A DNA stretch of 64,000 nucleotides from NCBI GenBank assembly GCA_965208675.1, contig OZ242351.1, positions 3,296,001 to 3,360,000 of the forward strand, written 5' to 3'. The notes below the pieces were generated by a model, which was given only the letters and a program-made list of their open reading frames with translations, was not told where the DNA came from and made no database searches. The position numbers were made by a program, and so were the translations under genes. Shown piece after piece: positions 18,351 to 56,062 of this stretch. Positions within the stretch are counted from its first letter, which is position 1. Each line of letters starts with the position of its first letter. Source of the DNA: Candidatus Poribacteria bacterium. Lineage in GTDB: Bacteria; Poribacteria; WGA-4E; PCPOR2b.

Positions 18351-18405
18351 ATCAAGCGACCGAATAGGGAGCATCAACTGAGCGGATAGCGAAGGCGATA
18401 GTCTT
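18351..18405 (+). repeat. 33-nt hairpin element: truncated copy (18351-18372) plus full copy (18373-18405)
   Basis: ATCAAGCGACCGAATAGGGAGC followed by ATCAACTGAGCGGATAGCGAAGGCGATAGTCTT. Confidence 0.9.
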
Positions 18406-18477
18406 AAAATGCCTCTCCAACAGTGAGAACGCCTTGTCGGCTCATTACAATAATCATTCCCCTCCTTACCAAGGAGC

Positions 18478-18510
18478 ATCAACTGACCGATTAGGGAAGG
18501 CGATAGTTTT
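18478..18510 (+). repeat. 33-nt hairpin element
   Basis: ATCAACTGACCGATTAGGGAAGGCGATAGTTTT. Confidence 0.9.
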
Positions 18511-18725
18511 TATAGTTCTTATAGGTTGGGTTGTGCGCTGTTTCTAGCACCCTCCATTAAGATGTAGGTAATAGTAAGCTTAGTAAGGGGGAGATTTATT
18601 CCGACGAACATTGCCGCGATTCGGAGATTGCGCCTACGGAACCTACAAGAACTAGCGAATATGTGCCGTGAGTTGGAGATTGCGCTTACCGAAGGTGCGA
18701 GAACGGTTGGAGGGGCGGCGAGGTT

Positions 18726-21700
18726 CTACCACGGTGAGCCGGTAATCGGGATGTCGATTGGCGAGGTTGCGACGAGCAAGTATCCGACGCCGCCCTCGAT
18801 TGGGCCGTCACCGTCTTGACCGGGTGCCGTAATCGTGTGAAATCCAAAGCCAGCGGCTTTGGAGACCGCGATTGCCAAAACACCTTCGAACAGCAGCAGG
18901 CCGCTAATCATGTTGATGCCACCCGGATTGCGCGGAAAGCCGACGAGGTTGTTTCCGACTTCCACGTTAATTTCGGAAACGCCGCCGGATTCTAACGCAT
19001 CGCCGGCAAGCTCTAGCTTCGCAGCCCTGCGCATCACGGCAATTAGACCTGTATCGGCACGGATTTCGGCATCGGCTGCACTTCCCGCGCTCTCGTCACC
19101 GATGTAGCTTTGCCATCTGCCATTGTCGTCAAGTGATATGATGAAGTTGACGGCATCTCCGAGGGAATCAAAAAGGTCGCCCACCGTGTCGATTACAACA
19201 TCTTGGCCGTTAATCTGATTAACTTTCAACGGAATATGTATCCCATGTGTGCCCCGTGGGATGGACAACGTAAACATCGGTACCCTTACAGATTCGATAG
19301 TCAGCAAGGCGACAGTATGGGAAATACCTTCGACGCTCACGAAAACCTTGTTGATGCCGGGATCGGCGCCAAGTGTGAGGGTACTCTCCGCCCTGCCGTT
19401 GGCATCAGTTGCGGCAATTTTCGGTTGGACCGTCCCGCCGCCTGCGGTGACGGTAAAGGAGACCTGAATACCCGGCACGGGATTATCAGATTGATCTCGC
19501 ACTTCCACAACAAACGGCTCTTCAAGCGGCGCGCCGGGAGTTCCCTGCTGGTTTTCGCCAGAGATTATTTCGAACGTTTTGAGTATTCGGATGGCTTCGG
19601 CGTTAAACACGACTAATTTCTGGATGCCGGCAACAGAAACAGTGACGGAGTTTGTGCCCGCATTTGGGCTTAACGTGAGGGTACTCTCAGCCCGACCATT
19701 TGCGTCAGTCGATTCGCGCGCGGCACTCAGCATACCACCGCCGCTGCTGACGGTAAAAGTAACCGGAACGCCTTCAAACGTAACACTATTTTCGTCCCGA
19801 ATTTCCACAACGAACGGTTTGTCTAACACGGCACCGGGTAATCCCTGTTGGCTATTGCCCGAGACTATGCGAATCTCATGAGGCGTTCGGTTGTCGAAAT
19901 CCACCTCAACCCCCCGCTCCCGTAAGGCAGGAATGTGCGTGTATATGGATGCGTAACTCAAGGGATTTCTCCGAAGATAAACCATTGCCCCGCCCGCTAA
20001 TCCAGTATTCGCAATTAAGGGTGACATATCTGTTATTGAGTTGCCTTGAAGATTCAGGGATGTAAGGTTGATTAATCCCGTTAAAGCCGAGGTGTTGGTA
20101 ATTTTGTTGTTCTCTAACCCCAGCGCAAATAGATTGGTCAATCCTGCTAAAGGGAAAATGTCGGTGATGTTGTTATTTATTAGATACAAGCCCGTTAGGT
20201 TGGCTGCGCTTTCGAGGCCGGCAAGGTTGCTAATGTCGGCGCCGCCTGCATAAAGATAGGTCAAGGTTTCCATATCTGCCGGGGCTATTGGTGTTCCCGA
20301 CGCCACACCGAGCGTGTTTTCAATCGCGGCGCGAAGATTTGGATCGGGGATGTCTAACGGTGCAACCGCCACGGCGGTAAAGGTTACCGCCTCCTCAATT
20401 CCAGCGGCAGACACCCGTACGGTGTTGATTCCCAAATTTTTTCCCAGCGTGAGCGTACTCTCCGCGCGTCCATTTTCATCGGTCACGATGTGCTGCACGC
20501 TGAGAACACCTCCGCCTGCGGTAACGGCAAAGGTGATGGCGACGCCGCCAAGTGGAGCACCGTCATCTGAATTTCGTGCTTCAATGACAAATGGGATAGG
20601 CAACGGAGTGTTAGCTAAGCCGTGTTGGTTATCGCCCGAAATTTTCGAAAGCGGTTGAAATGCGTCAGAAACCAGTACAAATTCTTCACCGCCCCATGTG
20701 TCTCCATTCATGTCAACGGCATCAACAACAATCGGATGAATTAGAGGGTTCGAAAGACTGGTGTTTCTGCTGTATGACGGTTCATGGGCAGATGGAATAA
20801 AACCGTTATATTCAAATTCAATAACGGCTTCCTTTTTGCCCGCTAACCCGCGGCATGCCTTCAATGTGAATCGGTTGTCTGGTTGGGCGGCGTGTAGAAT
20901 CGCTTGGTGCAGCCCATCTGAATCTCGGATTGAGAGTCGAACTAGGGTGCTTTTTGAGGCTGCCGGATAGGAACGGGGGGAAACAAATTCAATGATGGGC
21001 GGCAGCCCTGATTTAAGTGGAGCATCGTGCTTAAAGTAGGGATGCACGGACAAATATTCGGCGTTGCATTGGGATAACCGATTCCAGCTTGGTGAATCCG
21101 GTGAGCCGTACGACATGATGTACGCGCCGTCGCGGAAGTCGTGGTAAAGTCCGAAGGCGTGTCCGAGTTCATGCGCCGCTAAGCCCCAATTAAACCTACC
21201 GGAAACCAATGCCTCGCCACCGGTTTTTCCGCGTCTGCCGCCGACACCGCGGTAAACGGAATCGCCCATACCAATTCCATTTATACTGTTGTCAACGACG
21301 ATGAGATAGACATTTGCTTCGTGATTGAAGGCACTGTTAATCTCGGCAGACACAACACGATCTGTTTCTTCAAGATAGTGACTATCAGGATATTGTCCAG
21401 CTACATCGTGCACCATCGGCTCGCCTTGAGAGTCAGTTTCAAAAATGAACGTTGAGTTTCCGTACCCATGCGCCTTCATCTGCTCGGCAAAGAAAGATTG
21501 AATAGTGCGAATATCCGTTTTCATCTGTTGAACCACGCCGGTGCGGTACGGACGGTCATTGGGCAGGAAGTAAATCATTCTTACCGTTCGCGGGGCGCCG
21601 ACGTTTAAGTTTGGTGCGAAGGTTCGGGCGTAATTACGGGTATCCGGACGCTTGGAATCATTATGAGATTGAAGTTGGTATTGGACAGCCCCGCATAAAT

Positions 21701-21803
21701 GTGCCGCATTCCCTAGGGTTGGATGGGGAGCGGCAACCGCAAAATTGGGTGTGAAAACGGGGAGAAAAAGAATTACCAATGTTTTTATGATTTTGATTGC
21801 CAT
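18726..21803 (-). CDS. Exported surface protein: zincin metallopeptidase domain + invasin/Big_1-like Ig repeats + internalin-like LRR
   Basis: Signal peptide; HELGHAFGLYHD with Met-turn YIMSY; three (I/V)SG.NQ.G...PFV.E.R...G(R)AESTLTL Ig units; IPDPNLRAAI cap with L..L.L..N.I LRRs. Start may instead be TTG 21809. Confidence 0.85.
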   Translation of the reverse strand: MAIKIIKTLVILFLPVFTPNFAVAAPHPTLGNAAHLCGAVQYQLQSHNDSKRPDTRNYARTFAPNLNVGAPRTVRMIYFLPNDRPYRTGVVQQMKTDIRTIQSFFAEQMKAHGYGNSTFIFETDSQGEPMVHDVAGQYPDSHYLEETDRVVSAEINSAFNHEANVYLIVVDNSINGIGMGDSVYRGVGGRRGKTGGEALVSGRFNWGLAAHELGHAFGLYHDFRDGAYIMSYGSPDSPSWNRLSQCNAEYLSVHPYFKHDAPLKSGLPPIIEFVSPRSYPAASKSTLVRLSIRDSDGLHQAILHAAQPDNRFTLKACRGLAGKKEAVIEFEYNGFIPSAHEPSYSRNTSLSNPLIHPIVVDAVDMNGDTWGGEEFVLVSDAFQPLSKISGDNQHGLANTPLPIPFVIEARNSDDGAPLGGVAITFAVTAGGGVLSVQHIVTDENGRAESTLTLGKNLGINTVRVSAAGIEEAVTFTAVAVAPLDIPDPNLRAAIENTLGVASGTPIAPADMETLTYLYAGGADISNLAGLESAANLTGLYLINNNITDIFPLAGLTNLFALGLENNKITNTSALTGLINLTSLNLQGNSITDMSPLIANTGLAGGAMVYLRRNPLSYASIYTHIPALRERGVEVDFDNRTPHEIRIVSGNSQQGLPGAVLDKPFVVEIRDENSVTFEGVPVTFTVSSGGGMLSAARESTDANGRAESTLTLSPNAGTNSVTVSVAGIQKLVVFNAEAIRILKTFEIISGENQQGTPGAPLEEPFVVEVRDQSDNPVPGIQVSFTVTAGGGTVQPKIAATDANGRAESTLTLGADPGINKVFVSVEGISHTVALLTIESVRVPMFTLSIPRGTHGIHIPLKVNQINGQDVVIDTVGDLFDSLGDAVNFIISLDDNGRWQSYIGDESAGSAADAEIRADTGLIAVMRRAAKLELAGDALESGGVSEINVEVGNNLVGFPRNPGGINMISGLLLFEGVLAIAVSKAAGFGFHTITAPGQDGDGPIEGGVGYLLVATSPIDIPITGSPW

Positions 21804-22006
21804 GGTCAACCCGTCAAAGAATGTCTGAACTGTGATTAATGGAGTGAAATGTTATTCGGTGTTGACAAACTCTTGTAGGATAGGTAGAGCGGGATTGATG
21901 ACACATGTGAATTATGAGACAGGTAGTTGTTGAATTGATTGGGTTCAAGACTTGTTTATGTGTGGGGATATGCAATGTTTTTGGTGGTCCGGAGGTTTCA
22001 ATGCTG

Positions 22007-22039
22007 AAGACTATCGTCTTCGCTATTCGCTCAGTTAAT
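22007..22039 (-). repeat. 33-nt hairpin element
   Basis: Reverse complement reads ATTAACTGAGCGAATAGCGAAGACGATAGTCTT. Confidence 0.88.
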
Positions 22040-22373: not shown

Positions 22374-22415
22374 CTTTTCTGCCGTCTAGAGATTTCAAAA
22401 GCGTTGGGTTTCGGA

Positions 22416-22448: not shown

Positions 22449-22524
22449 CTCTACCCAACCTACAGGAGTTAGACGCATAACGTACCATCGGGTATCGGAA
22501 TGCCCTCATGGCAGTTCGTATTGA

Positions 22525-24199: not shown

Positions 24200-24209
24200 C
24201 GGCAACTAT

Positions 24210-37222: not shown

Positions 37223-37279
37223 AAGGTCTCTACCTTATTACTGAAAAAACCACAGTTTATTATTGAGAGATGGAACGCG

Positions 37280-38227: not shown

Positions 38228-38357
38228 ACGTCCAAAGGTTCGTAGTAGGGCAATTTATTGCCCGTTTCTACATAAAACAATATGTCAGGTCAAGGAAGTG
38301 AACGACCTGCCGGACGCGCAATAAATTGCGCTACTACAAGCTGATCTGCGTAAGTCC
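38212..38357. mobile_element. MITE-like element with internal REP pair
   Basis: Terminal inverted repeats GGACTTACGCAG / CTGCGTAAGTCC enclose inverted REP-like palindromes GTAGTAGGGCAATTTATTGCCCG and CGCGCAATAAATTGCGCTACTAC. Confidence 0.7.
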
Positions 38358-38443
38358 GAAATTATTTTGAAATTTCACAATCTTGAAGTCTTTAGAAATT
38401 CTGGCCCGCTTACATTTTTGGACATTGAACAGGAAGGTGATAA

Positions 38444-39379: not shown

Positions 39380-39390
39380 GAGGGAGAGAT

Positions 39391-39650
39391 TCCCCCCTTA
39401 TCAGGCTTACTATTACCCACAAGTCCAGAAATTCGCACGGAGCCACGCTGTGGGAGGGAGATCCTTCTCCCGATTATCGAGAATCAAGCGACCGAATAGG
39501 GAGCGCGATAGTTTTAAATGCCTCTCCCACAGTAAGGACGCCTTGTTGGTTCTATCATAATCATTCCCCTCCTTACCAAGGAGGATCAACTGACCGAATA
39601 GGGAAGGCGATAGTTTTTATAATTCTTCCTAGTTCTTGTAGGTTGGATTG
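39391..39650 (+). repeat. Approximately 260-bp composite dispersed repeat, copy B (contains 33-nt elements at 39483-39515 and 39585-39617)
   Basis: Aligns with 18260-18533. Confidence 0.92.
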
Positions 39651-39727
39651 AGCATCCTCTCGAAACCCAACCTTCGCGGATTCTTAAGAATGTCTAAAAG
39701 AAACGAGAATTAAGGGACGGACAGCAA

Positions 39728-40801: not shown

Positions 40802-40839
40802 GTTGCATTGTTACGTTTACCTCAAAAGGGAAGTTATTG

Positions 40840-41781: not shown

Positions 41782-41782
41782 C

Positions 41783-44031: not shown

Positions 44032-44317
44032 ATCGGTGAGCAGAGTGGGATTACTCTGGCACTAAACCCACAGAGAGTATCCCGTATCTATGTATGCATA
44101 GGCACGTCATAACAGTGCTGACTACTGCGGTTCAACTGTAATTTCCGGGGCCTCGACGATTGTCTGCACTGATGATTATCAGGGTGTTAAACCCAGGTAT
44201 GCTCACTGATACAATCGTGTACGATGCAAGAAAGGCGCGAACTCACCGATTTTAAATTGTCCAAATTAGTATAACCAAGACCTGCAGTGATGTCACTTTG
44301 CAAAGGTGGCTGACGGC

Positions 44318-45829
44318 ATGACTCAAACACTCAAACTACATGGGCGCTTGTTGGTGAGAAATACCAGCCTCAACTTTGGGGCGAAGGTGCTGCCCTTGGT
44401 TGTGATGGGGATCACGGTTCCGTATGTGATTGACGGTTTGGGTGTGGCGCGCTACGGGATTTTCACGCTTATCTGGGCTGTCATAGGCTATTTCAGTGTC
44501 CTTGATCTGGGTTTGGGGAAAGCAACTGCAAAGAAGGTAGCGGAAGCGCTGGGTAGAGGGGAAAGCGCTTCGATTCCCGCTATCGCTTGGACGGCTGTCG
44601 TCCTTACACTGGGTTTAGGGTTAATTGCAAGCTTCTCCCTTATGGCATTCACGTCGCTTCTGGTAAACAATGTCTTTCAGGTGGATGCCAACTTGAGCGA
44701 AGAGACCCAGCAGGTCTTCTACCTTGCTGCGGTCGGTCTGCTCATCGCATTGGTCAAATCTGCGCTTACCGGGGTGTTGGAGGCGCATCAGCGGTTCGAT
44801 TTAATCAACATGGTGGGCGTACCTTCAAGCCTGCTGTCCGCGGTTATTCCACCCTTTGTGCTTTATGCGGATGGCGGATTGCCTGCTATCGTTATTCTAC
44901 TCGTCATCAAAAACGGTTTCGAGTTATTCGTTTTGTCCTTCCTCTGGTTGAAGGTGTTGCCGTCCGGAGACCGCTTCTTTGCGCTAGATATGAAAATGAG
45001 CCCCGCCCTTTTTTCGTTTGGAGGGTGGTTGACACTGCACAACGTCGCAAGTTATGTTCTACAATACGTTGAGCGGTTCCTAATTGGCGCGCTCGTGACA
45101 GTAACAGCGGTCACCTATTACAGTGTTCCTTTCACCCTCATCAGTGCGTTGACGGTTCTTCCTTCGAGCCTGATGCCTGTCCTCTTTCCCGCTTTTAGCG
45201 TCCTTCACCATTCAGATGTTACGAAATTAGAGAATCTCTTCCGGCGGGCGCTGAAATACCTCGTCGTGCTGATGGGGCTGGCGGCATTGTTTCTGATGAT
45301 ATTTTCGGAGGAAATCTTGGTGTTGTGGATAGGCGAGGATGGTATAAGAAGCGTCTATGTGCTTCAGTTCCTCGCCGCGGGATACGTGCTCTCGGTTGTT
45401 TCATGGTATTTCAGCACGTTCCTGCAAGGGACGGGTTATATTAAATCGGTGACCGCAATTGGGCTGGCGTTCTTGGCTTTTCAGGTTCCATTCTCATGGG
45501 CGTTCATAACAGGGTGGGGAATTGAGGGCGCGGCTTTGGCATTCACATTTAGTCGGGCGCTAGTAGTTTTGGTATTCTACTGTACCGCTCGAAGGTTTAA
45601 TCTGATTCGTCCTTTGCGGGTTTCCATCGGCAAAATGGCAAAACTCACTTGCGGGTTTTTGATTATCATTTCAGCAACGCTGTTGCTCAAAACAGTTGTA
45701 GGTATTCTACCTTGGTCTATCATTTTGAGCGCCCCTGTATTCATTGGAAGCACCTTCCTGTTTGGCTGGTATGCCATTCTCACCCATGAGGAAAAAAGCA
45801 TGGTGTTACAGACGGTAAAGCGAGTCTAA
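44318..45829 (+). CDS. wzx: Wzx-type polysaccharide flippase
   Basis: LG..RYG, DLGLG, ERFLIG..V...AVTYY and LFPAFS; many TM helices. Confidence 0.9.
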   Translation: MTQTLKLHGRLLVRNTSLNFGAKVLPLVVMGITVPYVIDGLGVARYGIFTLIWAVIGYFSVLDLGLGKATAKKVAEALGRGESASIPAIAWTAVVLTLGLGLIASFSLMAFTSLLVNNVFQVDANLSEETQQVFYLAAVGLLIALVKSALTGVLEAHQRFDLINMVGVPSSLLSAVIPPFVLYADGGLPAIVILLVIKNGFELFVLSFLWLKVLPSGDRFFALDMKMSPALFSFGGWLTLHNVASYVLQYVERFLIGALVTVTAVTYYSVPFTLISALTVLPSSLMPVLFPAFSVLHHSDVTKLENLFRRALKYLVVLMGLAALFLMIFSEEILVLWIGEDGIRSVYVLQFLAAGYVLSVVSWYFSTFLQGTGYIKSVTAIGLAFLAFQVPFSWAFITGWGIEGAALAFTFSRALVVLVFYCTARRFNLIRPLRVSIGKMAKLTCGFLIIISATLLLKTVVGILPWSIILSAPVFIGSTFLFGWYAILTHEEKSMVLQTVKRV

Positions 45830-45840
45830 CGCAATACCAT

Positions 45841-45924
45841 TTTAGTTGCGGAACTGGAAACCTTAACGTAACTGGATTGAACGGGGGAAGGGGCACACGT
45901 TTTCTCGGCAATGCGCATTCGCCT
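45841..45924 (+). pseudogene. Relic of the 3' end of a third PD40 paralog
   Basis: Translates to FSCGTGNLNVTGLNGGRGTRFLGNAHSP, compared with FSRGDGNIYLTKLGGGGITRYFNNAHSP in 47957..49897. Confidence 0.7.
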
Positions 45925-45962
45925 GCAATCAACTCGCTTAGCATCGTATAGCGTTAGGAGAC

Positions 45963-47867
45963 ATGACCATGATGATTATAGCGAAATGCCATCAGCAAAC
46001 CAATACATGTGATGCGAATCGTTACTTGTCGGCACGAGTTGAGGTCGTCACACATTTTGTTATTTTGTTGCTCCTGATGAATTTCATTGTTTTTCCGGCA
46101 AATGCCCAAAATCTACAAGAGCAGATTGTGTTTGTGTCTGAATTGGGAGACATTCAACAAATACATCTCAGCATGCCCGGAGGCGGTCAAATTCAAAAAC
46201 TTACTTTACAACATAAACGCTATGCCACACCATCATTGTCGTTTGATGGAGAACGGGTTGCGTTTGCATCGGCAGACCGTAGAAGTCGAAACTATGACAT
46301 TTTTGTTATGGATATACAATCTCGAGAGCAGCGTCGCGTGACATTTGCGGGAAGCTTAGACATTCATCCTTCTTGGGCGCCTGATGGAAGTCGGATTGTG
46401 TTCGCTTCAGATGCAGGAGGAGTTTTCAATCTCTACACCGTGGATGAGAATGGGGAAAACCGCACCCGCCTGACGAATAGTTCGGGTGACGATATCCATC
46501 CTGACTGGTCTCCGGACGGGAGCAAAATAGCGTTCGCGTCGGATCAGGCAAGCGCAGTTCATCAGGCTTACTGGCTGAATCCTAGAACAGGACACCAAAA
46601 GCAATTGACTCAAATCAGTTTTGGAATTGATTACCCGCGATGGTCGCCTGATGGGGCAAAAATAGCATTCTTTTCGGCAGTTCGCGACAGGGAACGATGG
46701 CCAGTCGGCAACAGGCAAATTTGGCAAGTCAGCGCCGATGGAACCGGCTTAAAGAGTCTAATTACAGACGGCGACTACAATGATGAGCCAGTCATTTCTC
46801 ATGACTTAAAGTGTATTGCCTTTAAATCTACGAGAGACGATAACACGGACATTTATATCTTCAATCGGGATTCCCGAAAAATTCTGCGTCTAACTCGCCA
46901 CCCATCTTACGATTCGCGGCCGAGTTGGTCGCCGGACGGTAAACATCTAGTGTTCGTTTCTCGCAGATCTGACAACGCTGACATTTATAAGATTAACGCC
47001 GATGGCGGCGGGCTTGTGAATCTGACTCGCAGCGATGCCGATGAATCTATGCCGGTTTGGTCTCCGAAGGGGGACACAATCTGTTTCGTGCGAAATGTAG
47101 ATGGAAGGCGGGAGATTCGTGTGATGGACAGTAATGGGAAGCGTCAAATGCGGCTGGATAATAGCCCATTCTACAGCTCACCGCCGACATGGTTGCCGCG
47201 AGGAGATAAGATTGCCTTTGTGAGTAAACCCGTTCAGCTTGGTAGGGATTATCGTATCTATACAATGGATACGGATGGGCAGAATAAGCGACTGTTGTTT
47301 AGGACAGTAGATGGCGAAGTTCGAAAAATCAGTTGGTCTGCGGATGGCAAGCAAATGCTGTTTGTCCATTACGCCAATGGGGTTCACGAAATTCGTATGC
47401 TTGATGTGATTACACGAAAGGTTAGCACAATAAATTTGAATTTGAAGGTGGTTGCGCCTGACAACGCGGCTTGGGCGCCTTTAGGCAGGACGATTGTGTT
47501 TTCAGCTTTACCAATAAATCGACTACGGTCCGCCTTACGATATGGCATTCTCTTGATTGACGCCGACAGCGATAAAACTCAAGAACCAGAACCCGTATGG
47601 GATACCTTCAGTCCCGACCCGATTCGATTACCCGACAGAAGAGCATGTTTTTCGTGGTCGCCGGATGGGCAAAACTTGCTTTTTGGTCGCGGAGATTCTG
47701 AGAACCTCTACCAAACTGGATTAAGCGGGGCAGGCGTCACACGTTTTCGCAGAGATGCCCATTCACCGGATTGGAAAACCCCTCGCGTCTGGCGGAGTGT
47801 AACACCCAAGAACAAGCTGCATACAACTTGGGGAGAAGTCAAAGAAATAAACCGTGCCCAGGATTAA
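45963..47867 (+). CDS. TolB-like PD40 double beta-propeller protein, exported
   Basis: Many P.WSPDG..IAF repeats, a signal segment and C-terminal VTPKNKLHTTWGEVK. Confidence 0.9.
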   Translation: MTMMIIAKCHQQTNTCDANRYLSARVEVVTHFVILLLLMNFIVFPANAQNLQEQIVFVSELGDIQQIHLSMPGGGQIQKLTLQHKRYATPSLSFDGERVAFASADRRSRNYDIFVMDIQSREQRRVTFAGSLDIHPSWAPDGSRIVFASDAGGVFNLYTVDENGENRTRLTNSSGDDIHPDWSPDGSKIAFASDQASAVHQAYWLNPRTGHQKQLTQISFGIDYPRWSPDGAKIAFFSAVRDRERWPVGNRQIWQVSADGTGLKSLITDGDYNDEPVISHDLKCIAFKSTRDDNTDIYIFNRDSRKILRLTRHPSYDSRPSWSPDGKHLVFVSRRSDNADIYKINADGGGLVNLTRSDADESMPVWSPKGDTICFVRNVDGRREIRVMDSNGKRQMRLDNSPFYSSPPTWLPRGDKIAFVSKPVQLGRDYRIYTMDTDGQNKRLLFRTVDGEVRKISWSADGKQMLFVHYANGVHEIRMLDVITRKVSTINLNLKVVAPDNAAWAPLGRTIVFSALPINRLRSALRYGILLIDADSDKTQEPEPVWDTFSPDPIRLPDRRACFSWSPDGQNLLFGRGDSENLYQTGLSGAGVTRFRRDAHSPDWKTPRVWRSVTPKNKLHTTWGEVKEINRAQD

Positions 47868-47956
47868 CCCTTGGCGATATCTTCAGCGACACTGATTCTA
47901 GTCGGAAAGTCAACAATTGCAATCAACTCGCTTAGTATCGTATAGCGTTAGGAGAT

Positions 47957-49897
47957 ATGACCATGATGATTATAACGAAATGCCATCAACGAACCAATAC
48001 ATGTGATGCGAATCGTTACTTGTCGGCACGAATTGAGTTCGTTCCACATTTTTTTGTATTATTGCTCATGATGAATTTCAGTGTTTTTTCCTCAGATGCC
48101 CAAAATCAACAAGAGCAAATTGTGTTTGTGGCTGAGGTCGCAGACCTTGAACAAATACACCTAAGAAAGGCTGGAGGCGGTCGAGTTAAAACTAATAAGC
48201 TCACATTACAAGAGCCAACAGGAAGCTATTTAACACCATCACTATCGTTTGATGGAGAACAGGTTGCATTTGCCTCTCGACTTGGACGAAACTATGATAT
48301 CTATGTTATGGAGCTACAGTCTCGTAAGCAGCGCCGCGTGACGTTTGCGCCAAGTCGGGACCTTTATCCGTCTTGGGCGCCCGATGGAAGTCGGATTGCC
48401 TTTGCTTCGGACAAAGAGGGAGTTTTCAATCTCTATACCATCGAAAAAAATGGAGAAAACCGCACCCGTCTGACAAATAGTTCGGGCGACGACATCCAGC
48501 CTGACTGGTCTCCGGACGGGAGCAAAATAGCGTTCGCATCTGATCAGGCGAGCGCGGTGCATCAAGTTTACTGGATGCATGTCCGAACAGGGCACCAACA
48601 GCAACTGACACAAAGGACTTTTCATATCCGGTACCCGAGATGGTCACCTGATGGGACAAGGGTGGCATTCTATTCGGGAGTGTCTGCTTGGGTGCCGCCA
48701 CTCGGCAAAAGGCAAATTTGGCAGGTCAGCGCGGATGGAACCGGTTTAAAAAGCCTAATCACTGACGGCGACTACAATGATGACCCGGTTGTTTCTCATG
48801 ACTTAAAGCGTATTGCTTTTACATCAACGAGAGACGGTAACACGGACATTTATACCTACGATAGGGATTCGATGCAAATTCACCGCATAACGCATGACCC
48901 GTCTGACGATTATCAGCCGAGTTGGTCTCCGGACGGCAAACACCTTGTTTTTGTTTCTGACAGAACGGGCAACCCTGATATTTACAAGATGAACGCCGAT
49001 GGCGGCGGGATTGTTAGGTTGACTCGAAGCGATGCCGATGAAACTATGCCGGCTTGGTCTCCAAGAGGCGACATGATTTGTTTCGTGCGAAAGGTAGGAG
49101 ATGATTTAGTTGGAAGACGGGAGATTCGTGTGATGGCCAGCAACGGCAACGGTCAAATGCGGCTGGATTATATACCGCATTCAAACAGATTTCCGGCATG
49201 GTCGCCGAAAGCGGATAAGATTGCCTTTGTGAATAGGCCCGAACGGCTCTCTAGGGTTGTTCGCATCTATACAGTTGATATAGATGGACAGAATAAACGA
49301 TTGTTATTTGAGACATTAGATGGTGCAATCAGAAAAATCAGTTGGTCTCCGAATGGCAGGCAAATCGCGTTTGTCTATCACTCTTCACGTGATGGGATTC
49401 TTCAAGAAATCCGCATACTTAATGTGCATACACGAAAGGTCAACACAATTGAAATTGAATTGAAGGTGGTCGATAATTTTAAGGTAGTTGAGTTTCAAAA
49501 TGCTGCTTGGGCACCAATAGGCAGGACGATAGTGTTTTCAGGTATGCCATTACGTCCAGTGTCCACCGTACCCCCTTTCCGCTATGGCATTTTCTTGGCG
49601 GACGCCGATGGCGATAAGACTCAAGAACCAGAACCCTTATGGGATACCTTCATCCCCAAGAAGCAATACCCATACAAAAAAGAACGTTTTTCGTGGTCTC
49701 CGGATGGGGATAGCATCCTATTTAGCCGAGGAGATGGAAACATTTACTTAACAAAGTTGGGTGGTGGAGGGATTACACGTTACTTTAACAATGCGCATTC
49801 ACCGGATTGGAAGACGCCTCGTGTCTGGCGGAGCGTAACTCCCAAGAACAAGCTGCAAACAACTTGGGGTGAAGTCAAAGAAATAATCCGTAACTAA
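47957..49897 (+). CDS. TolB-like PD40 double beta-propeller protein, tandem paralog
   Basis: Colinear with the previous gene, including about 40 bp of upstream DNA. C-terminal VTPKNKLQTTWGEVK. Confidence 0.9.
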   Translation: MTMMIITKCHQRTNTCDANRYLSARIEFVPHFFVLLLMMNFSVFSSDAQNQQEQIVFVAEVADLEQIHLRKAGGGRVKTNKLTLQEPTGSYLTPSLSFDGEQVAFASRLGRNYDIYVMELQSRKQRRVTFAPSRDLYPSWAPDGSRIAFASDKEGVFNLYTIEKNGENRTRLTNSSGDDIQPDWSPDGSKIAFASDQASAVHQVYWMHVRTGHQQQLTQRTFHIRYPRWSPDGTRVAFYSGVSAWVPPLGKRQIWQVSADGTGLKSLITDGDYNDDPVVSHDLKRIAFTSTRDGNTDIYTYDRDSMQIHRITHDPSDDYQPSWSPDGKHLVFVSDRTGNPDIYKMNADGGGIVRLTRSDADETMPAWSPRGDMICFVRKVGDDLVGRREIRVMASNGNGQMRLDYIPHSNRFPAWSPKADKIAFVNRPERLSRVVRIYTVDIDGQNKRLLFETLDGAIRKISWSPNGRQIAFVYHSSRDGILQEIRILNVHTRKVNTIEIELKVVDNFKVVEFQNAAWAPIGRTIVFSGMPLRPVSTVPPFRYGIFLADADGDKTQEPEPLWDTFIPKKQYPYKKERFSWSPDGDSILFSRGDGNIYLTKLGGGGITRYFNNAHSPDWKTPRVWRSVTPKNKLQTTWGEVKEIIRN

Positions 49898-49966
49898 CCT
49901 TATTTTTCTGAGATTTCGTTCGTAAAGATATAGCTTCTCTTGGCACTTTCGAATGAGGTAAAGATT

Positions 49967-50299
49967 ATGCGAAAAAAACGGCTTCCCTTGGTGATACTAC
50001 TAAGCATAGCAGTTTCATTTTTGCTCTACTTCTTCATATCCAATTGGTTGGAAGAACCAGAAATCCAGATAGTATACGTGCTGCCGGATGAACCTATCAA
50101 GGCTGTCGCTAAACGGCGGTCCCGGTATTATGCTGCTCATGCTCAAACCACAGGGCAAGGCGAACGACATGAGTCGATGGAAGTACAGCATGAACTACCT
50201 GATGAAATGGAACGCGATAACCGAGAATTCAACACATCGCTACTTCTTTCCTTCTTGACAACCTCGCGGCAATCGGTTACAATTACCTTCCTAAAATAA
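49967..50299 (+). CDS. Short membrane-anchored hypothetical protein, possibly truncated
   Basis: RBS GAGG, basic N-terminus plus TM. Ends just before a repeat-rich intergenic region. Confidence 0.45.
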   Translation: MRKKRLPLVILLSIAVSFLLYFFISNWLEEPEIQIVYVLPDEPIKAVAKRRSRYYAAHAQTTGQGERHESMEVQHELPDEMERDNREFNTSLLLSFLTTSRQSVTITFLK

Positions 50300-50434
50300 G
50301 CACCTCCGTGTCCGGAAAAATGGGGTCTCTTCATATATCGAAACGATTGCATAGGTGCATAGCGCTGACGTTTGAGGCGTAAGAAATATTGGGGCGTGTT
50401 GACATTTATGTAAAGCTGCCTGTAATCGTAAGGG

Positions 50435-50490
50435 ATCAACCGAGTGAATAGCGAGGGATCAAGCGACTGAATAGGGAGTGCGATAGTTTT
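50435..50490 (+). repeat. 33-nt hairpin element: truncated copy (50435-50457) plus full copy (50458-50490)
   Basis: ATCAACCGAGTGAATAGCGAGGG followed by ATCAAGCGACTGAATAGGGAGTGCGATAGTTTT. Confidence 0.9.
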
Positions 50491-50824
50491 ACTTATAGTG
50501 TTTATCAGGCAACCTCGCCCATTGACCAACGCGGGCAGGGAACTCTCAACCATACAGGTTGAGTGGGTTGTACATCAAGAATCATATCTTGAAAAAATAA
50601 CAGGAGTGTTGCACCATAGTCTTGGCTCAAAAAAGCCGGCATGTTGCACTACATTCTAGAGTAACACCGAATTTGGTCAAACAACCTACAGCAGCCCGAA
50701 AGCGTGTCTGATTGTAAACAAAGGGTTGGGGGACCCAACCCCTACGAAAGGTCATGTGTCTGTGCACCTCTCTCGATTGTCCGGTTGTGATGAAATGTCA
50801 AGGAGAACCTAGTAACTTGGAAAC

Positions 50825-51583
50825 ATGAGAACACCAATCGTTGCGGGTAACTGGAAACTCTACAAGACAATCAGTGAGGCTGTAGAGTTTGGTATTGAGT
50901 TGCGGGAATTAGCCGCGGATGTTACCGGTGTTGAGATTGTTATCGCTCCTCCCTTTACAGCCCTCTCGGCGGTTGCAAATGTGCTAGCAGGCAGCAATAT
51001 CCGTCTTGCAGCGCAGGATGTGTTCTGGGAAGAAAAAGGTGCATTTACCGGCGAAGTTTCTCCAGGAATGCTCAAGGATGCCGGTTGTGACTATGTAATC
51101 ATCGGTCATTCTGAGCGGCGGGGATATTTCGGCGAAACGGATGTAAGCGTCAATCGCAAGGCAAAAGCGGCGCACATTCACGGCTTAAGACCGATTCTCT
51201 GTGTGGGCGAGAAACTTGAAGATCGGGACGCCGGAAATACCCAATCGGTCGTTGAAGCACAGGTCGTGAAGGGAATTTCCGGGTTCTCCGAATCCGAAGT
51301 GCTGTCTACCGTGATCGCCTATGAACCCGTGTGGGCGATTGGCACGGGCATAACCGCAAGATCGGATCAGGCACAGGAAGTTCACGGTTTTATCAGATCG
51401 TTGTTGTCGAGAATCTACTCGACTGATGCGGCAAAGCAGGTGTGCCTCCAATATGGCGGCAGTGTCAACGCAGGCAACACTGCCGAGTTGATGGCGCAAC
51501 CGGATGTGGATGGCGTCTTGGTTGGCGGAGCAAGCTTGGAAGTTGAGTCATTTGCACAGATCGTAAGAGCAGCACACGGATAA
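50825..51583 (+). CDS. tpiA: Triosephosphate isomerase
   Basis: AGNWK, IIGHSERR, AYEPVWAIGTG, YGGSV and LVGGASL. Confidence 0.99.
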   Translation: MRTPIVAGNWKLYKTISEAVEFGIELRELAADVTGVEIVIAPPFTALSAVANVLAGSNIRLAAQDVFWEEKGAFTGEVSPGMLKDAGCDYVIIGHSERRGYFGETDVSVNRKAKAAHIHGLRPILCVGEKLEDRDAGNTQSVVEAQVVKGISGFSESEVLSTVIAYEPVWAIGTGITARSDQAQEVHGFIRSLLSRIYSTDAAKQVCLQYGGSVNAGNTAELMAQPDVDGVLVGGASLEVESFAQIVRAAHG

Positions 51584-51601
51584 AGTAAAGCGAGGATTAT
51601 C

Positions 51602-52000
51602 ATGGGAATTTTTATCGGTTTTGTAATGGTACTATTTGTGCCCGTATGTATTTTGTTGGTAGTCATCATATTGTTGCAAGATAGTAAAGGTGAGGGGCTG
51701 TCATCTAGCGCATTTGGAGCCTCTGAAGTACAATCGATTTTGGGCGGTCGAGGGGCTGCGACCTTTCTCTCCAAACTTACAACCTGGCTCGCTGTTGGAT
51801 TCATGGTGATGTCGCTCTTTTTAATGCGTTTCTACGGTGATATTAATAGCGGCGCCTTGACCCCGATTGAGACGGAAGAGGCGCAGTCGGAAAGCGCTGT
51901 GTCCACTGATGATGATGAAGGCAATCAAGCAGAAACAGATGAAGTTATTGACGCTGCTGAAACCGGCGGCACCGGCGACGCTGAATCCGATAGTCAATAG
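51602..52000 (+). CDS. secG: Preprotein translocase subunit SecG
   Basis: Two TMs, ILLQ..KG.GL..AFG, FLSKLT, and the conserved tpiA-secG order. Confidence 0.92.
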   Translation: MGIFIGFVMVLFVPVCILLVVIILLQDSKGEGLSSSAFGASEVQSILGGRGAATFLSKLTTWLAVGFMVMSLFLMRFYGDINSGALTPIETEEAQSESAVSTDDDEGNQAETDEVIDAAETGGTGDAESDSQ

Positions 52001-52058
52001 TCCTTATTGTCAATCGTTACTCGTTTCCCCTTGAGTTTTTAACCCTGTTAAACCGCCA

Positions 52059-52475
52059 ATGTCCGAGCAAGGAGTTCCTCAAGAGAGTTGGACTGTCCAC
52101 CCGCTCTGCGACAGTTGGAAGCGCTCTGCACTCTTGTTCCTTTTCCTCACCGCTATTTTCATTACCGTCTATTTTTTCTGGCGGTCTGTGTGGGTTACGC
52201 TTTTTTCGGCGATACTTCTAATTGGATCGCTGTACCGGTATTTCGTGCCATTCCGTTATGAACTCTTCGCGGATGGATTAGTTGTTACGTCATTGTTTTA
52301 CCGCGTTGCAAAACCGTGGTCAGACTTCCATAGCTTCTATGTCGATCGCAACGGCGTATTGCTTAGCCCATTCGCCAAACCCTCCCGCCTTGAGAATTTC
52401 CGAGGCCTATATGTCCGTTTTGGTTCCAACCGTCTCGAAGTGATTGATTTCATCAAACGAAAAATTTCATCATGA
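52059..52475 (+). CDS. Hypothetical two-TM membrane protein
   Basis: Two hydrophobic helices, then a soluble domain with LSPF..PSRLENFRG. Confidence 0.75.
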   Translation: MSEQGVPQESWTVHPLCDSWKRSALLFLFLTAIFITVYFFWRSVWVTLFSAILLIGSLYRYFVPFRYELFADGLVVTSLFYRVAKPWSDFHSFYVDRNGVLLSPFAKPSRLENFRGLYVRFGSNRLEVIDFIKRKISS

Positions 52476-52594
52476 AGTTGTAGGTGGACGCGACCCATGA
52501 CATCAATCGCCGAGACTGATGAAAGATTGCGGCCGGATAGGTGCTTTTCGGTAGTTAATCAGTTACTGATATGTCCGAGTCCGCGATTTTGTAT

Positions 52595-52623
52595 TTGATT
52601 AAAAAATCTAGTTGTGCTATACT
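52595..52623 (+). promoter_or_regulatory. Putative sigma70 promoter
   Basis: TTGATT-17 bp-TATACT with extended TG. Confidence 0.5.
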
Positions 52624-52757
52624 AAAAACCCTGATTGAACCAAGCAATCCACAATAAATCCACCAGCAGTGATGGGATTAACCGAATGAATGATGAGGGC
52701 GATAGTATTCCAAGTCGCCAAAGTTTTGAAGTTCCCGCTAAGGAGGTAAAATCTCTA

Positions 52758-53549
52758 ATGAAGAGTTCGAACGACTCTGTAAAAATGAATATTGTTGCAT
52801 TGCTCATATTTACCTTATTCGTTGCCGGCTGTATGGGAGGAACCGCGTTAAAACACGAAGCGCCGGTTCTCCCTCCTGAGAATCTACCCGAAGATATCGT
52901 GCTTGACGCAGAAAACCCTGACTTTTTCAAAATCGCTGCCAAAGGCCCAATACTTTCAATGACGCAGAAGGATATTACCGTTTCACTTTCCTATTGGCGA
53001 AACGCCGATCTTAATTTTAGATACAATCGCGGGAGTTCAGTCTCACCTTTTTTTGAAACAGAAGGACTTAAACAAGGCGATAAGACAGATGTCTTTTATG
53101 TGAAAATCGAAAACAACAGTCCCCAGAAAGTAATCTTCAAGGTACAGGGAAGACGGGCTAGAGATGTGGGGGGATCGACGGCGATATGTGAAATAGCCGA
53201 TAAGAGAGAGAATCGTTTCCCAGTGCTGAGTTACGCAGATTTGGAGCAACGTCTCAGATACATGTCAAAGGTCGGCGGGATGTATGTCAAGAATGGACTC
53301 GCGATAGCCAAGCAAATCTTACTAGAACTTCAGATTCCAGACGATGTAATACTACCGGGAGAAAGCGCCGAAGGTTTCCTTCCATTTCAAGAGCTGAAAC
53401 TAAACACCAGAGAGTTAGAAGTAATCATCCCGTTGGAGAAAGCGCCGCCGGAAGGTACAGCAGGGCGTTATCAAAACGTAGTGTTCAGATTCCCCTTTGA
53501 ACACTCCGAATCGATTAGACACGCTCAACCTCCCACCACCAGATACTGA
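52758..53549 (+). CDS. Hypothetical lipoprotein
   Basis: RBS AGGAGG; hydrophobic signal ending in the lipobox VAGC. Confidence 0.75.
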   Translation: MKSSNDSVKMNIVALLIFTLFVAGCMGGTALKHEAPVLPPENLPEDIVLDAENPDFFKIAAKGPILSMTQKDITVSLSYWRNADLNFRYNRGSSVSPFFETEGLKQGDKTDVFYVKIENNSPQKVIFKVQGRRARDVGGSTAICEIADKRENRFPVLSYADLEQRLRYMSKVGGMYVKNGLAIAKQILLELQIPDDVILPGESAEGFLPFQELKLNTRELEVIIPLEKAPPEGTAGRYQNVVFRFPFEHSESIRHAQPPTTRY

Positions 53550-54167
53550 TGGCAGCAGCGTAGTGTCTGAAGTAGTTCATCTTCAATGTCGGTAGGCTTA
53601 ATTTAATCGCCTCTTTCTCATTGCGAGTTGATTTCCATTTTGGCGGGACAGCCGTGTTTGGCTAGATTTACAACCATTGATGAAGTGCGTTTTTACAAAA
53701 TGGCGTGCTATCTTCGCTTGGACGCTGAAGTCATGTAAATGTCAAGTGCGACTAACCCCCATCTCTATCTCTTTTTTGCTCGCAGCTTTAGGTATTTTCC
53801 ATTTGTCAATTTAACATTAATAGTTCGGCTTTCATGGCTGAAAGCAGCCTAGATTTCAAAAGTAGTCTCCCGCTTGGTTTAATATCCCTCCAGTATCTTG
53901 CCGTTAACTCTTTCAATGGCGCTGTCCTCGGCAGCTAATGCCATTTCTCCAAGATGCCAGTGCATAAAAAGCGGAATCAAGCAAGAATTTCCTGCAATGC
54001 TCGCCGCTTTAACACCAACCCATCACCTTCGCTGCCAACACCGTACGCTTACGTGCGCTCGTAACCATAGTCCATCGCTCAAACACACAATTCAAAATTC
54101 CGACAGCCGCCTCGCCAAAGCCGAAATGCGGGCTATGCAATAGGGGGTCTCTCTTGCGTGAACGGCG

Positions 54168-55919
54168 TCAAACCTTGAAGATTTCTCCTAGACGGTTGCC
54201 GAGAAATCGTCCGGCGGCGATGAGGCATGCAGTCAATATAAACATCCCAACTACACCCATTGCACTGGCGACATAGGCTCCCCCTACCGGACGTTGCGAG
54301 AGATTCCAGATGGCTTTGGTAATTGGGTTGAATTGGTCTCGCATTGACAATATTAAGCTGTCGGCGACTTCCAACATTGAGAATGAGAACACCAGAATAG
54401 ACCCAGCGATGATATTGGCTGCCACTAGCGGAAGCGTAATCTTGTAGAGTGAACGTGCTGGACTTGCGCCTAGATTCTGCGAGGCTTCCTCGAATGTAAC
54501 GCTGGTTTGCTGGAGTCCGGCATAAATCGAGCGAAGCATATACGGTAACCGCCGCACAGCGTAGCTAATGATTAGCAGTGCAATAGGGTTTTGGCGAGGG
54601 TCTAATTTTGACACAATTTGATCCGGTAGATGGCGGAGTAGCAGTGTCGTATTCGCGAAGCTTCCGACATAACCAAATGCAAGCGCCACGCCGGGGAGCG
54701 CTAAGGGTAACATCGCGATAGCATCAATTGAATTTTTGAAAGGAATGCGTTTTCGGGTGAGCAAATACGATATCAGAATGCCAAAGATGAGCGCCAGTAA
54801 GGTACTGAACGTGCTGTAAAGTAAGCTGTTCTTAATGCTAGGAAGGGTATCATTGTGAGTGAACACGGTTTCATAATGTTTCGGTGTGTAGCTTTGCGGG
54901 AAAACACTGAAATTCCATTGACTTGCATCGGGGGTTAGAGAGGTCAACACCACGCTGATGTGCGGGAGGAATGCTATGAGAAAAATTCCCCCCACCACTA
55001 TATAAATCACGAGGCGCATCCGCTTGCTGGCTTGAACTTCACGAGTGCTGACATGACCGCGTCCCAACATTGCATACTGTTTGTTGCCTGTATACCGTTT
55101 GGATACATAGAATGCGATTGCAGTTAGCAAAATAACCAAAACAACGAGTGCGTATCCCATCGGGTTAACGTTTGCGTCTGTGACTTGCCGGAAAATTTGT
55201 ACCGCAATAACTTCGTTATAGTTCAAAATTAACGGTGTGCCCAAATCAGTGAACGCCCAGATGAAAACAAGAATAGCGCCGGCGAAATAGCCGGGCAGCA
55301 TAAGCGGGAATGTAATCGTCCAAAGCACTTTGAGGCGCGAAGCACCCATGTTTTCGGCTGCTTCCTCCAGACTGCGATCTACATTGGATAGGGCAGCGAC
55401 AACGTTTAAGTACATGATTGGATAGAGGTGCAGAGTTGCTAGCAGCACTACCCCCCAAAAACCGCTGCCGAACCAGTCAATTGGTTCGGCAAATTCAATG
55501 AGTCCAATCTTCATGAGGAACATATTCACGCTGCCATACAACCCAAAAAACTTCTGCATGCCAATCGCGCCGACGAAGGGCGGCATTATTATCGGAATCA
55601 GGATGATGCCCTGCAGGGTACTCCGTCCGGGGAAGCGATAACGCGTCAAGAAATAGGCGAGGGGAAGGCTAACGAATGTTGCAGCAATTGTTACGGCGAT
55701 TCCAATCTTAAAGCTGTTAGTTACTAGTTCACGTGCGTTTCCATCCGTAACAATTAGCTTAAAATACGATAGGCTGAATCTTCCATCGATCCAAAAAGAT
55801 TCTTTGAATATGTAAAGAAGGGGATATATCAGGAATATGGTGAAGAAAAGGACAATTGGTAGGAGCAGGACGAAAACAGAGCGATCAAGCGAACGAATAG
55901 TGAGTGCGATAGTCTTCAC
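54168..55919 (-). CDS. fbpB: Fe(III)-type ABC transporter permease (FbpB-like)
   Basis: Two EAA loops (LEEAAENMGAS and FEEASQNLGAS), PPFVGA and FTDLGTPL. Confidence 0.9.
   Translation of the reverse strand: MKTIALTIRSLDRSVFVLLLPIVLFFTIFLIYPLLYIFKESFWIDGRFSLSYFKLIVTDGNARELVTNSFKIGIAVTIAATFVSLPLAYFLTRYRFPGRSTLQGIILIPIIMPPFVGAIGMQKFFGLYGSVNMFLMKIGLIEFAEPIDWFGSGFWGVVLLATLHLYPIMYLNVVAALSNVDRSLEEAAENMGASRLKVLWTITFPLMLPGYFAGAILVFIWAFTDLGTPLILNYNEVIAVQIFRQVTDANVNPMGYALVVLVILLTAIAFYVSKRYTGNKQYAMLGRGHVSTREVQASKRMRLVIYIVVGGIFLIAFLPHISVVLTSLTPDASQWNFSVFPQSYTPKHYETVFTHNDTLPSIKNSLLYSTFSTLLALIFGILISYLLTRKRIPFKNSIDAIAMLPLALPGVALAFGYVGSFANTTLLLRHLPDQIVSKLDPRQNPIALLIISYAVRRLPYMLRSIYAGLQQTSVTFEEASQNLGASPARSLYKITLPLVAANIIAGSILVFSFSMLEVADSLILSMRDQFNPITKAIWNLSQRPVGGAYVASAMGVVGMFILTACLIAAGRFLGNRLGEIFKV
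55884..55916 (+). repeat. 33-nt hairpin element forming codons 2-12 of the permease ORF
   Basis: ATCAAGCGAACGAATAGTGAGTGCGATAGTCTT; the minus strand reads KTIALTIRSLD. Confidence 0.88.
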
Positions 55920-56029
55920 TAGTTTTGGGGATTACACCCCTTTTTGATCGGATTTAAGGTGATGTATAATTTTTGGTTGCCGTGACTATAAACAAATTTT
56001 GTTTGTAAGATTGTAGGTTAGCTTGAACA

Positions 56030-56062
56030 ATCAACTGAGCGAATAGCAAAGACGGTAGTCTT
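56030..56062 (+). repeat. 33-nt hairpin element (diverged)
   Basis: ATCAACTGAGCGAATAGCAAAGACGGTAGTCTT. Confidence 0.85.

Follow-up and report, generated by a model that had tools for sequence, protein, structure and literature searches.

A 64,000-nt stretch of the genome of a Candidatus Poribacteria sponge symbiont (hereafter the window; G000:C1:3296001-3360000 of the 4.89-Mb single-contig genome G000, 49% G+C, 96.4% complete) contains repeated copies of a minute hairpin-forming module. The module folds with a defined strand polarity, is restricted to two lineages of the phylum, is embedded in mosaics of other repeats, inserts into itself at a fixed point, and differs in presence both between paralogous sites of one genome and between closely related genomes. 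The balance of probability inclines slightly towards reading it as a non-autonomous dispersed repeat of very small size, belonging to two Poribacteria genera, which has spread as DNA, is probably still spreading and is driven in trans.

The motif noticed in a preliminary description of the window, with the consensus ATCAA-xx-GA-yy-GAATA-y'y'-GA-x'x'-GCGATAG, is the core of a 34-36-nt module composed of a 23-nt hairpin part (from ATCAA to x'x'-G), then CGATAG, and a 5-7-nt tail, the latter being TYTTC in the genus of the window's host (g1) and NNNATCC in a second genus, g11, where it is seen as AGATCC or AAATCC. Copies were searched at up to 3 mismatches with the pattern ATCAANNGANNGAATANNGANNGCGATAG, in which the stem positions are free, and the expectation was taken from 100 shuffles; the genome-wide totals are counts obtained with this pattern, not with the covariance model. 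G000 harbors 285 copies, 122 of them exact, representing 113 stem combinations and 179 distinct 29-mers. Around the unit, conservation reaches from about -4 to about +4, with G at position -1 in 233 copies and the tail TCTT or TTTT in 173. The four variable stem positions are paired in 87-95% of the copies, each by several pair types: CG (182), GT (33) and GC (30) at positions 6-22, CG (127) and TA (105) at 7-21, GC (136), CG (87) and AT (21) at 10-18, and CG (189), TG (45) and TA (36) at 11-17. The two G.A/A.G oppositions are retained in 265 and 268 copies, hardly any variation is seen in the loop or the ATC/GAT clamp, and the unpaired bases are invariant across the two genera, which belong to different families.

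The covariance model was built on 150 copies from many Poribacteria metagenome-assembled genomes (MAGs), picked to include one of each stem combination. In this alignment 91.7% of the cells are paired as compared with 74.6±0.9% in shuffles, and double-sided changes occupy 252 cells versus 64±12, a number reached by none of 500 shuffles in a control that ignores the relatedness of the copies; when the pairing partner is slid by 1-3 columns, the share of paired cells falls to 20-47%. Because many independent pair types (CG, GC, GU, AU) occur at one position, descent from a few amplified subfamilies is disfavoured. The excess of G.T pairs over A.C ones (121 vs 44) means that the given strand is the folding strand, i.e., the module folds on one strand only. 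Thus, the covarying stems, the near-fixed GA/GA opposition and the single-strand fold of defined polarity proposed in the preliminary description are all borne out. Its proposal to search Rfam yielded no match over the window at the gathering threshold and none at E values up to 10 over positions 39350-39700. The absence of terminal inverted repeats and of target duplication, also claimed there, holds for the unit ends in G000, which are not inverted repeats, and for the filled and empty sites described below.

Ten pattern matches were found in the window against 0.00 expected, and the covariance model retrieved the same ten full copies with scores of 37-54 bits (E values from 4e-11 to 5e-7). 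Both searches recovered all nine full copies listed previously, although the two on the minus strand had been counted from their 4-nt tails and actually start at 22011 and 22420, and a tenth, degenerate copy at 52677 had been missed. The two truncated copies also proved real: the one at 18351 measures 22 nt, that at 50435 measures 23 nt, and each is a 5' part directly upstream of a full copy. The counterpart of the copy at 52677 in G002, the closest genome, differs at stem positions, and the stretch from 55884 to 56058 is polymorphic, since G002 has one degenerate copy there and lacks about 117 nt between the two copies; a 45-kb contig of the metagenome run X9 contains 56 letters in place of positions 55889-56090 (202 nt).

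At g11-type loci, 23-nt 5' parts (ATCAA...x'x'G) are stacked directly upstream of a full copy, and a matching number of displaced 3' pieces (C/T-G-ATAG + NNNATCC) lies downstream of it, three of each being found within a GTAGGGTGGG...CCCACC hairpin at the locus L083. Among 312 full units at MAG loci, 55 are accompanied by stacked 5' parts, and 38 of these 55 have an equal number of displaced ..ATAG remnants (33 as 1+1 and 5 as 2+2), the other 17 being unmatched. The stacks are not slippage duplicates, because the stems of the stacked units differ. Every new copy at the MAG loci, where the full unit measures 36 nt, sits precisely at the G23/C24 junction of the resident copy; the module enters resident copies of itself at this one fixed place. 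In G000, five paralogue pairs representing self-targets differ by 21-23 nt (four of them by exactly 23), that is, by the core alone; they include window copies 18351/18373, whose paralogue at C1:1580326 is an uninterrupted single unit in the same host repeat, 23 nt shorter. In five other pairs the difference is 33-35 nt and in one it is 30 nt, the remnant being altered (CTTATAG, ACAAG, TTTAG); to the 33-35-nt class belongs the window locus 50435-50498 as compared with C1:2245395, the size difference from the single-unit paralogue being 35 nt and the inner copy being conserved in G002 (L128:13109). A different arrangement was observed at G002:C1:3052462, where, relative to G000:C1:3159997, a 38-nt insert directly follows the unit's GCGATA and ends in a GCGATGG of its own, thereby duplicating the GCGATAG-TCTT junction; isolated GCGATAGTCTTC pieces occur 10-16 nt downstream of several G000 units.

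Outside of resident copies, the preliminary suggestion to compare filled and empty sites was followed both within G000 and against G002. A BLAST-based search within G000 showed that, besides self-targets, five host repeats have paralogues both with the unit and without it. The filled forms are longer by 34 or 35 nt in GTAGTAGGG|CAAT... repetitive extragenic palindromes (REPs), by 23 to 36 nt at ...ACCCAACG|CTTT, by 29 or 30 nt with 5-6 nt replaced in the spacers of REP doublets, by 26 to 29 nt in the CCCCCTGATAAGG module, where about 7 nt are replaced, and by 29 or 30 nt in the CCTCCTT..AAGGAGG module. No target duplication was seen at these pairs; the base 5' of the insert is G, the base 3' of it is often C, and most insertions follow G. 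REPs of the AAGCCCCAGCGGGG|CGAYAGG type share the G|CGAYAG junction with the unit itself: a regular-expression scan of G000 revealed eight such REPs with an intact CGAYAGG tail and four with a unit start at that junction. The 3' foot of a hairpin was also tried as a general target, 44-47% of 204 outermost units and 34-42% of 816 controls having an upstream sequence that ends in a paired 3' arm, and was rejected since this difference is too weak to claim.

The comparison with G002 (86-96% identity) covered 433 kb, in which, of 33 G002 units, 13 had a unit at the orthologous G000 site, 10 had none and 10 were left unresolved. Four loci among the ten without a counterpart were clean, and all four are composite inserts of 200-250 nt carrying the unit. 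The sole difference at the level of the unit is an extra 23-nt core plus 10 nt in G002, inside a copy that is single in G000. This nested copy lies in the orthologue (2196 aa, still open) of a 2179-aa ORF (G000:C1:3218107-3224643, minus strand), within which the unit at G000:C1:3219188 is translated in frame (…IDRPNRE…); the unit adds peptide segments to this giant protein. Two composite inserts are worth describing. Window position ~1983-1985 (G000:C1:3297985) is empty in G000 and occupied in G002 by a 240-nt MITE (miniature inverted-repeat transposable element) with TCTT on both sides, built of a AGCCCCAGAGGGGCG-type REP, a GGCGGGG...CCCGC hairpin and a single unit. The other is a MITE of 250 nt with terminal inverted repeats (GGGCGTGTTGACATTT) and an internal unit, which is present in G002:C1:3046739-3047079 and absent at G000:C1:3154561-3154568; the window copy 50435-50498 lies in a member of the same MITE family.

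The claim that the flanks of the copies are unrelated turned out to be wrong. Window copies 18351/18373 and 39483 have about 45 nt upstream and about 60 nt downstream in common, copies 18478 and 39585 share both flanks, and those at 22011 and 22420 sit in the same kind of hairpin repeat; generally, the flanks of G000 copies sort into recurrent classes. The hosts comprise GTAGGTTGGG...CCCAAC hairpins, entered in the loop or the 3' arm (22011, 22420), the spacer of CTGTGGGAG-type REP doublets (18351/18373, 39483), the 3' side of the CCTCCTTACCAAGGAGG hairpin module (18478, 39585), a MITE with terminal inverted repeats (50435/50458), a 240-nt MITE, and REPs of the GTAGTAGGG and AAGCCCCAGCGGGG types. 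Altogether, the module lies in at least three kinds of REP hairpin and in REP doublets, in two MITE families and a GC-rich hairpin module, at unique intergenic sites and within one ORF; it is thus one building block of a mosaic resembling bacterial interspersed mosaic elements (BIMEs). Of the 285 copies, 245 are located fully outside crude ORFs, which fill 84% of the genome.

A survey of 176 Poribacteria genomes at no more than one mismatch found the element in bulk in only two of the genera surveyed, namely in all four genomes of g1 (186-202 copies each) and in all ten genomes of g11, which belongs to another family (495-1132 copies each). Seven other genomes had 1-17 copies each and the remaining 155 had none, while the reversed pattern, used as a control, had no match in any of the 176. 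G024 was considered as an informative partial carrier and rejected, its 21-23 copies (at up to 2 mismatches) being located on 5 contigs, as in bin contamination or an island; the copies of G146, confined to two contigs, look the same. A scan for exact matches in one genome per prokaryote species yielded at least 117 stretches, and among the matches listed all were from Candidatus Poribacteria MAGs and none from Nostocaceae; on these matches a cyanobacterial origin, which the likeness to repeats of Nostoc had suggested, was rejected. Contigs of four public sponge-metagenome runs, which come from four studies, contain the element as well, the depth peaking in the bins that hold units. Over window positions 37001-57000, the summed contig depth of runs X5, X7, X9 and X10 rises approximately 10-fold in every unit-cluster bin (39002-39668, 50341-51007 and 55677-56343), and many contigs end there, so these repeats fragment short-read assemblies of such symbionts.

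Table 1. Copies of the module in the window (window positions) and genes for REP-associated tyrosine transposases (RAYT) in G000 (positions on contig C1).
Position	Strand	Feature	Pattern match start	Score and comparison
18351..18372	+	22-nt 5' part of outer unit, broken by next copy		paralogue G000:C1:1580326
18373..18406	+	full unit (29-nt core + tail TCTTA), inner copy of nested pair, between the two arms of a CTGTGGGAG-type REP doublet	18373	1 mismatch; 47.4 bits
18478..18511	+	full unit, loop variant GATTA, directly 3' of CCTCCTTACCAAGGAG hairpin module	18478	44.4 bits; paralogue without unit at C1:1580428
22007..22039	-	full unit directly after ...AACCCAACG (3' arm of GTAGGTTGGG-type hairpin repeat)	22011	2 mismatches; 44.6 bits
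22416..22448	-	full unit in loop of GTAGGTTGGGTAGAG ... CGAAACCCAAC hairpin repeat	22420	0 mismatches; 53.7 bits
39483..39516	+	full single unit in REP-doublet spacer (CTGTGGGAGGGAG... / ...CCTCTCCCACAG)	39483	49.5 bits; paralogue without unit at C1:2817505; RNA minimum-energy fold equals covarying structure, -8.1 kcal/mol
39585..39618	+	full unit after CCTCCTTACCAAGGAGG hairpin module	39585	50.6 bits; RNA minimum-energy fold -6.5 kcal/mol
50435..50457	+	23-nt 5' part of outer unit inside MITE with terminal inverted repeats		single-unit paralogues C1:2245395, C1:1905223
50458..50491	+	inner full unit (core + tail TTTTA) between G23 and C24 of outer unit	50458	50.9 bits
50492..50498	+	displaced altered 3' remnant CTTATAG of outer unit		paralogue alignment
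52677..52705	+	degenerate full copy	52677	2 mismatches; 39.1 bits
55884..55916	+	full unit	55884	0 mismatches; 53.1 bits
56030..56062	+	degenerate full unit	56030	3 mismatches; 37.1 bits
2029870-2030214		RAYT L001		REP of ACCTGTCGCCCCGCTGGGGCTT type
3522617-3523117		RAYT L002		REP of CTGTGGGAGAGGCA type
190577-190780		RAYT L003		REP of GTAGTAGGGCAAT type
2071908-2072126		RAYT L004		REP of AGTAGTAGGCACAC type

Two gene neighborhoods associated with units deserve mention. The window segment 18274-22520 (4.2 kb) consists of a minus-strand gene for a 1027-aa protein (18726-21809) with repeat clusters at both sides; its translation contains an HELGH zinc-protease motif, Ig-like repeats and leucine-rich repeats, and belongs to a large paralogous family. 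The whole segment is absent at the syntenic site of G002, where about 15 nt separate the flanks, and is found elsewhere in that genome at 91% identity. In the second case, two adjacent genes at G000:C1:2648657-2650875, encoding by eye a PhyH-like dioxygenase and a cytochrome bd subunit I, have five units just upstream and share 94-97% protein identity, against a median of about 40% over all hits, with the locus L013 from a 6.15-Mb MAG belonging to the other carrier genus; this pair may reflect a recent gene transfer between co-resident symbionts.

Very small dispersed repeats, described in 2008 (Elhai et al., Genome Res 18:1484), reportedly behave as mobile DNA in Nostocaceae, and these small dispersed repeats (SDRs) of Nostoc, among them SDR4, SDR5 and SDR6, are said to be 21-27 nt long, to sit inside other repeats and to keep their hairpin through compensatory changes. 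Individual passages of the SDR literature give a length of 21 nt for SDR5 (PMC13756078), place its insertion between the third and the fourth base of HIP1 (PMC4390886) and state that SDR-like repeats were not found outside Nostocaceae (PMC5861425). On these descriptions, SDRs share with our module a length of tens of nucleotides (23 nt for the core here), high iteration, a non-coding nature, the lack of terminal inverted repeats, and precise insertion, also inside other repeats, at a defined short site, which is G23/C24 of the resident copy or elsewhere a position after G in our case. Unlike them, the module comes from the phylum Poribacteria, with no Nostocaceae among the listed matches of the all-species scan, its target is not HIP1, its unit is longer (34-36 nt) with the fixed CGATAG and tail, and its hairpin has two tandem mismatch blocks. 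The best-supported assignment would make it the same kind of thing as the Nostoc SDRs with an anatomy of its own, a likeness of kind, for which the earlier comparison with SDRs was apt. A record-level literature search, with supplementary data outside its scope, turned up no description of DNA repeats in Poribacteria, and the paper on Poribacteria single-cell genomics contained no passage on such repeats.

Other known classes fit less closely. IS200/IS605 insertion sequences, for which IS608 is the model, have two different hairpin ends and encode TnpA. The module resembles them in a hairpin with conserved flanking bases, strand polarity, lack of target duplication and insertion beside a short specific sequence; unlike in these elements, a single 23-nt hairpin is the whole element here, with no cognate gene known. 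Like MITEs, it is non-autonomous, intergenic and polymorphic in presence, but it possesses neither terminal inverted repeats nor a target-site duplication and is 3-10 times smaller; MITEs of G000 carry the unit as a passenger.

Fixed-position nesting, filled and empty paralogues, differences between close genomes and patchy carriage by two genera all favour the minimal non-autonomous mobile element suggested in the preliminary description; the protein-bound structural tag that it offered as an alternative is conceivable. A trans-acting structure-specific enzyme would read those unpaired bases that do not vary (ATCAA, both G.A pairs, the GAATA loop and GCGATAG), presumably on a single-stranded intermediate, and would join the module at G^C-type sites without target duplication, the stem sequences being free to drift provided that pairing holds. 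This enzyme would not be a reverse transcriptase, an IS110 recombinase or TnpB, because none of these was found in G000.

Several observations weigh against such a reading. In G000, 43 of 48 stacks of 5' parts have no recognisable 3' remnant (5 of 48 retain one), and displaced remnants usually have their first 1-3 bases altered or missing, in g11 as well (CATAG, TGATAG). The scarcity of remnants in G000 is explained by the size classes of the paralogue pairs, i.e., core-only differences of 21-23 nt and those of 30-35 nt with an altered remnant; the 21-23-nt differences, in turn, could also be produced by unequal recombination within arrays. Most differences between G000 and G002 concern whole composite repeats of 200-250 nt, hence much of the spread may be hitch-hiking. 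The orientation of the units relative to the flanking genes, considered below, could point to a role at the RNA level. Finally, the mobilising gene was not found: none of 28 unit-flanked ORFs of G000 looked transposase-like by eye (no family search was made), only three of them being mutually similar, and the ten recurrent ORFs that were tested in the vicinity of units at 117 MAG loci encode secreted, WD40 or oxidoreductase proteins (FlgD_ig/Por_Secre_tail, Laminin_G_3, WD40, GFO_IDH_MocA). An autonomous parent element was considered and rejected, as neither set of ORFs contains any that look like transposases. High-identity genes common to G000 and other MAG loci were housekeeping or metabolic only, the filter separating g1 and g11 loci poorly.

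Going beyond a dispersed repeat driven in trans, we tentatively consider, as a rather doubtful conjecture, that the module represents a distinct minimal class of mobile DNA, in which a 23-nt hairpin with a fixed tail of about 12 nt is directed to the 3' junction of its own stem and to other G^C sites by an unrecognised kind of enzyme confined to two Poribacteria genera, and which is possibly exchanged between co-resident sponge symbionts.

An established framework would make the module a strict REP family, its hairpin and GCGATAG being the substrate of the genome's own Y1 transposase (RAYT) and its copies arising via the REP/REPIN route (REPIN, REP doublet forming a hairpin), which we regard as unlikely. 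Such REP/REPIN and BIME systems with their RAYT (Y1) enzymes are outlined in passages of Nunvar 2010 (PMC2817692) and Bertels and Rainey 2011 (PMC3116915), and REPs are characterized in a passage of Di Nocera 2013 (PMC3733652) by a conserved GTAG or CGTC tag at one end. The module is similar in being a short (20-40 nt), extragenic, imperfect palindrome present in hundreds of copies and forming mosaics in a genome that has RAYT genes with their own REPs. Moreover, Y1_Tnp is the only candidate enzyme class found in G000 (four loci), and the REP flanking the best-scoring of these genes, L001, ends in GGGG|CGA(C/T)AGGT, that is, in the unit's own G|CGAYAG insertion junction, the one used in the four REPs mentioned above. 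However, the module bears neither tag, its ends being ATCAA and GCGATAG, and its copies are mostly single or in the same orientation: 27 of 36 close pairs in G000 are of this kind and nine are inverted (seven convergent and two divergent), which does not correspond to inverted doublets. Each of the four RAYT-like genes of G000 has a distinct cognate REP, and for none of them does the unit serve as the cognate flanking repeat (Table 1). In two g11 genomes a full unit lies within ~1.5 kb of 12 of 17 Y1 loci, sitting inside those genes' own REPs, and the RAYT L151 is bracketed by units in inverted orientation; the proximity in g11 is, however, what would be expected, since units insert into REPs, as they do into themselves.

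The phyletic pattern does not speak for Y1 enzymes either. Y1_Tnp occurs in 149 of the 176 genomes with no excess in carriers. Co-distribution was profiled for the L001 and L002 types. The former has a 79%-identical copy in the non-carrier G007 and is apparently lacking in the carriers G002 and G003, as read from their weak best Y1_Tnp matches (E values of 1e-11 and 3e-10, respectively, vs 5e-25 in G000). Of the 176 genomes, 90 have the latter; non-carriers hold four of its five closest relatives, and it was not found in the carriers G001, G058, G059 and G062. Hence, the link to HUH/Y1 enzymes drawn in the preliminary description received neither phyletic nor positional support, and the co-distributed RAYT it had proposed to look for did not emerge, as neither type tracks the element.

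Somewhat less probable still is that the module acts primarily as RNA, its hairpin (two tandem non-canonical blocks, a GNRA-like pentaloop) binding a host protein or shaping the 3' ends, stability or processing of mRNA, so that its abundance would be due to host selection and its copies would be carried by other mobile repeats. The invariance of the unpaired bases across two families is in accordance with this, as is the predominance of composite repeats among the between-genome differences. With RNA parameters, the minimum-energy fold coincided with the covarying structure in all five sense copies (-4.0 to -8.1 kcal/mol), and the antisense strand gave a weaker fold in three of three, while the DNA parameters of ViennaRNA reproduced the covarying fold in none of five copies. 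We give this contrast little weight, because the DNA parameter set of ViennaRNA is not known to carry a bonus for tandem G.A pairs. Where a spacer separates genes of the same strand, units follow the direction of these genes in 114 cases and run against it in 50; counted per spacer, the figures are 89 of 131 versus 38 with 4 ties. GC skew and gene-strand profiles showed no clean replichores in G000, so the bias appears to be local and transcription-related, and gene orientation has no replichore pattern that would explain it indirectly. Nevertheless, the bias fits RNA-level selection and insertion into the exposed non-template strand alike, and approximately 30% of the copies in tandem-gene spacers are antisense. 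Outer copies of nested stacks are split and unable to fold, yet common; one copy is translated inside a gene; and no Rfam family corresponds to the module. Neither does it look like a general intrinsic terminator, its fold amounting to just -4 to -8 kcal/mol including two internal loops and the U-rich tail (TYTT) occurring in g1 only.

That a reverse transcriptase working through an RNA intermediate, or else an IS110-type recombinase, spreads the module appears very improbable. IS110-family elements target REP-like hairpins, and the strand-specific fold tolerating G.U pairs would suit either route, but the truncated copies lack the 3' end and not the 5' end, and G000, complete as a single contig to the extent given above, had no matches to RVT_1, DEDD_Tnp_IS110 or the TnpB zinc-ribbon in searches that were positive in control genomes; the reverse transcriptase or IS110 gene sought near the motif was thus not found in G000. 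An assembly, library or amplification artefact, for which no supporting point was found, has a negligible probability, as 14 species genomes of two genera, each assembled separately, contain the element, and so do contigs of four sponge-metagenome runs from four studies.

Taken together, the module, being among the smallest apparently mobile DNA elements, provides a second, independent case of very small mobile-like repeats, now in an uncultivated phylum of sponge symbionts, and its anatomy is clearer than that of the Nostoc SDRs owing to the fixed self-insertion point, the stacked halves and the invariant unpaired bases around freely varying stems. In practical terms, the units break short-read assemblies, contigs ending at them, and mark variable genome regions rich in secreted-protein families; a unit can also add in-frame peptide segments to genes. 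The 14 carrier species with 200-1100 copies each, set against about 155 related genomes without the element, constitute a natural experiment, and the question of the mover is therefore testable by comparative genomics and biochemistry. If the module does represent a distinct class, identification of its enzyme from gene content would give the first mechanistic handle on the Nostoc SDRs.

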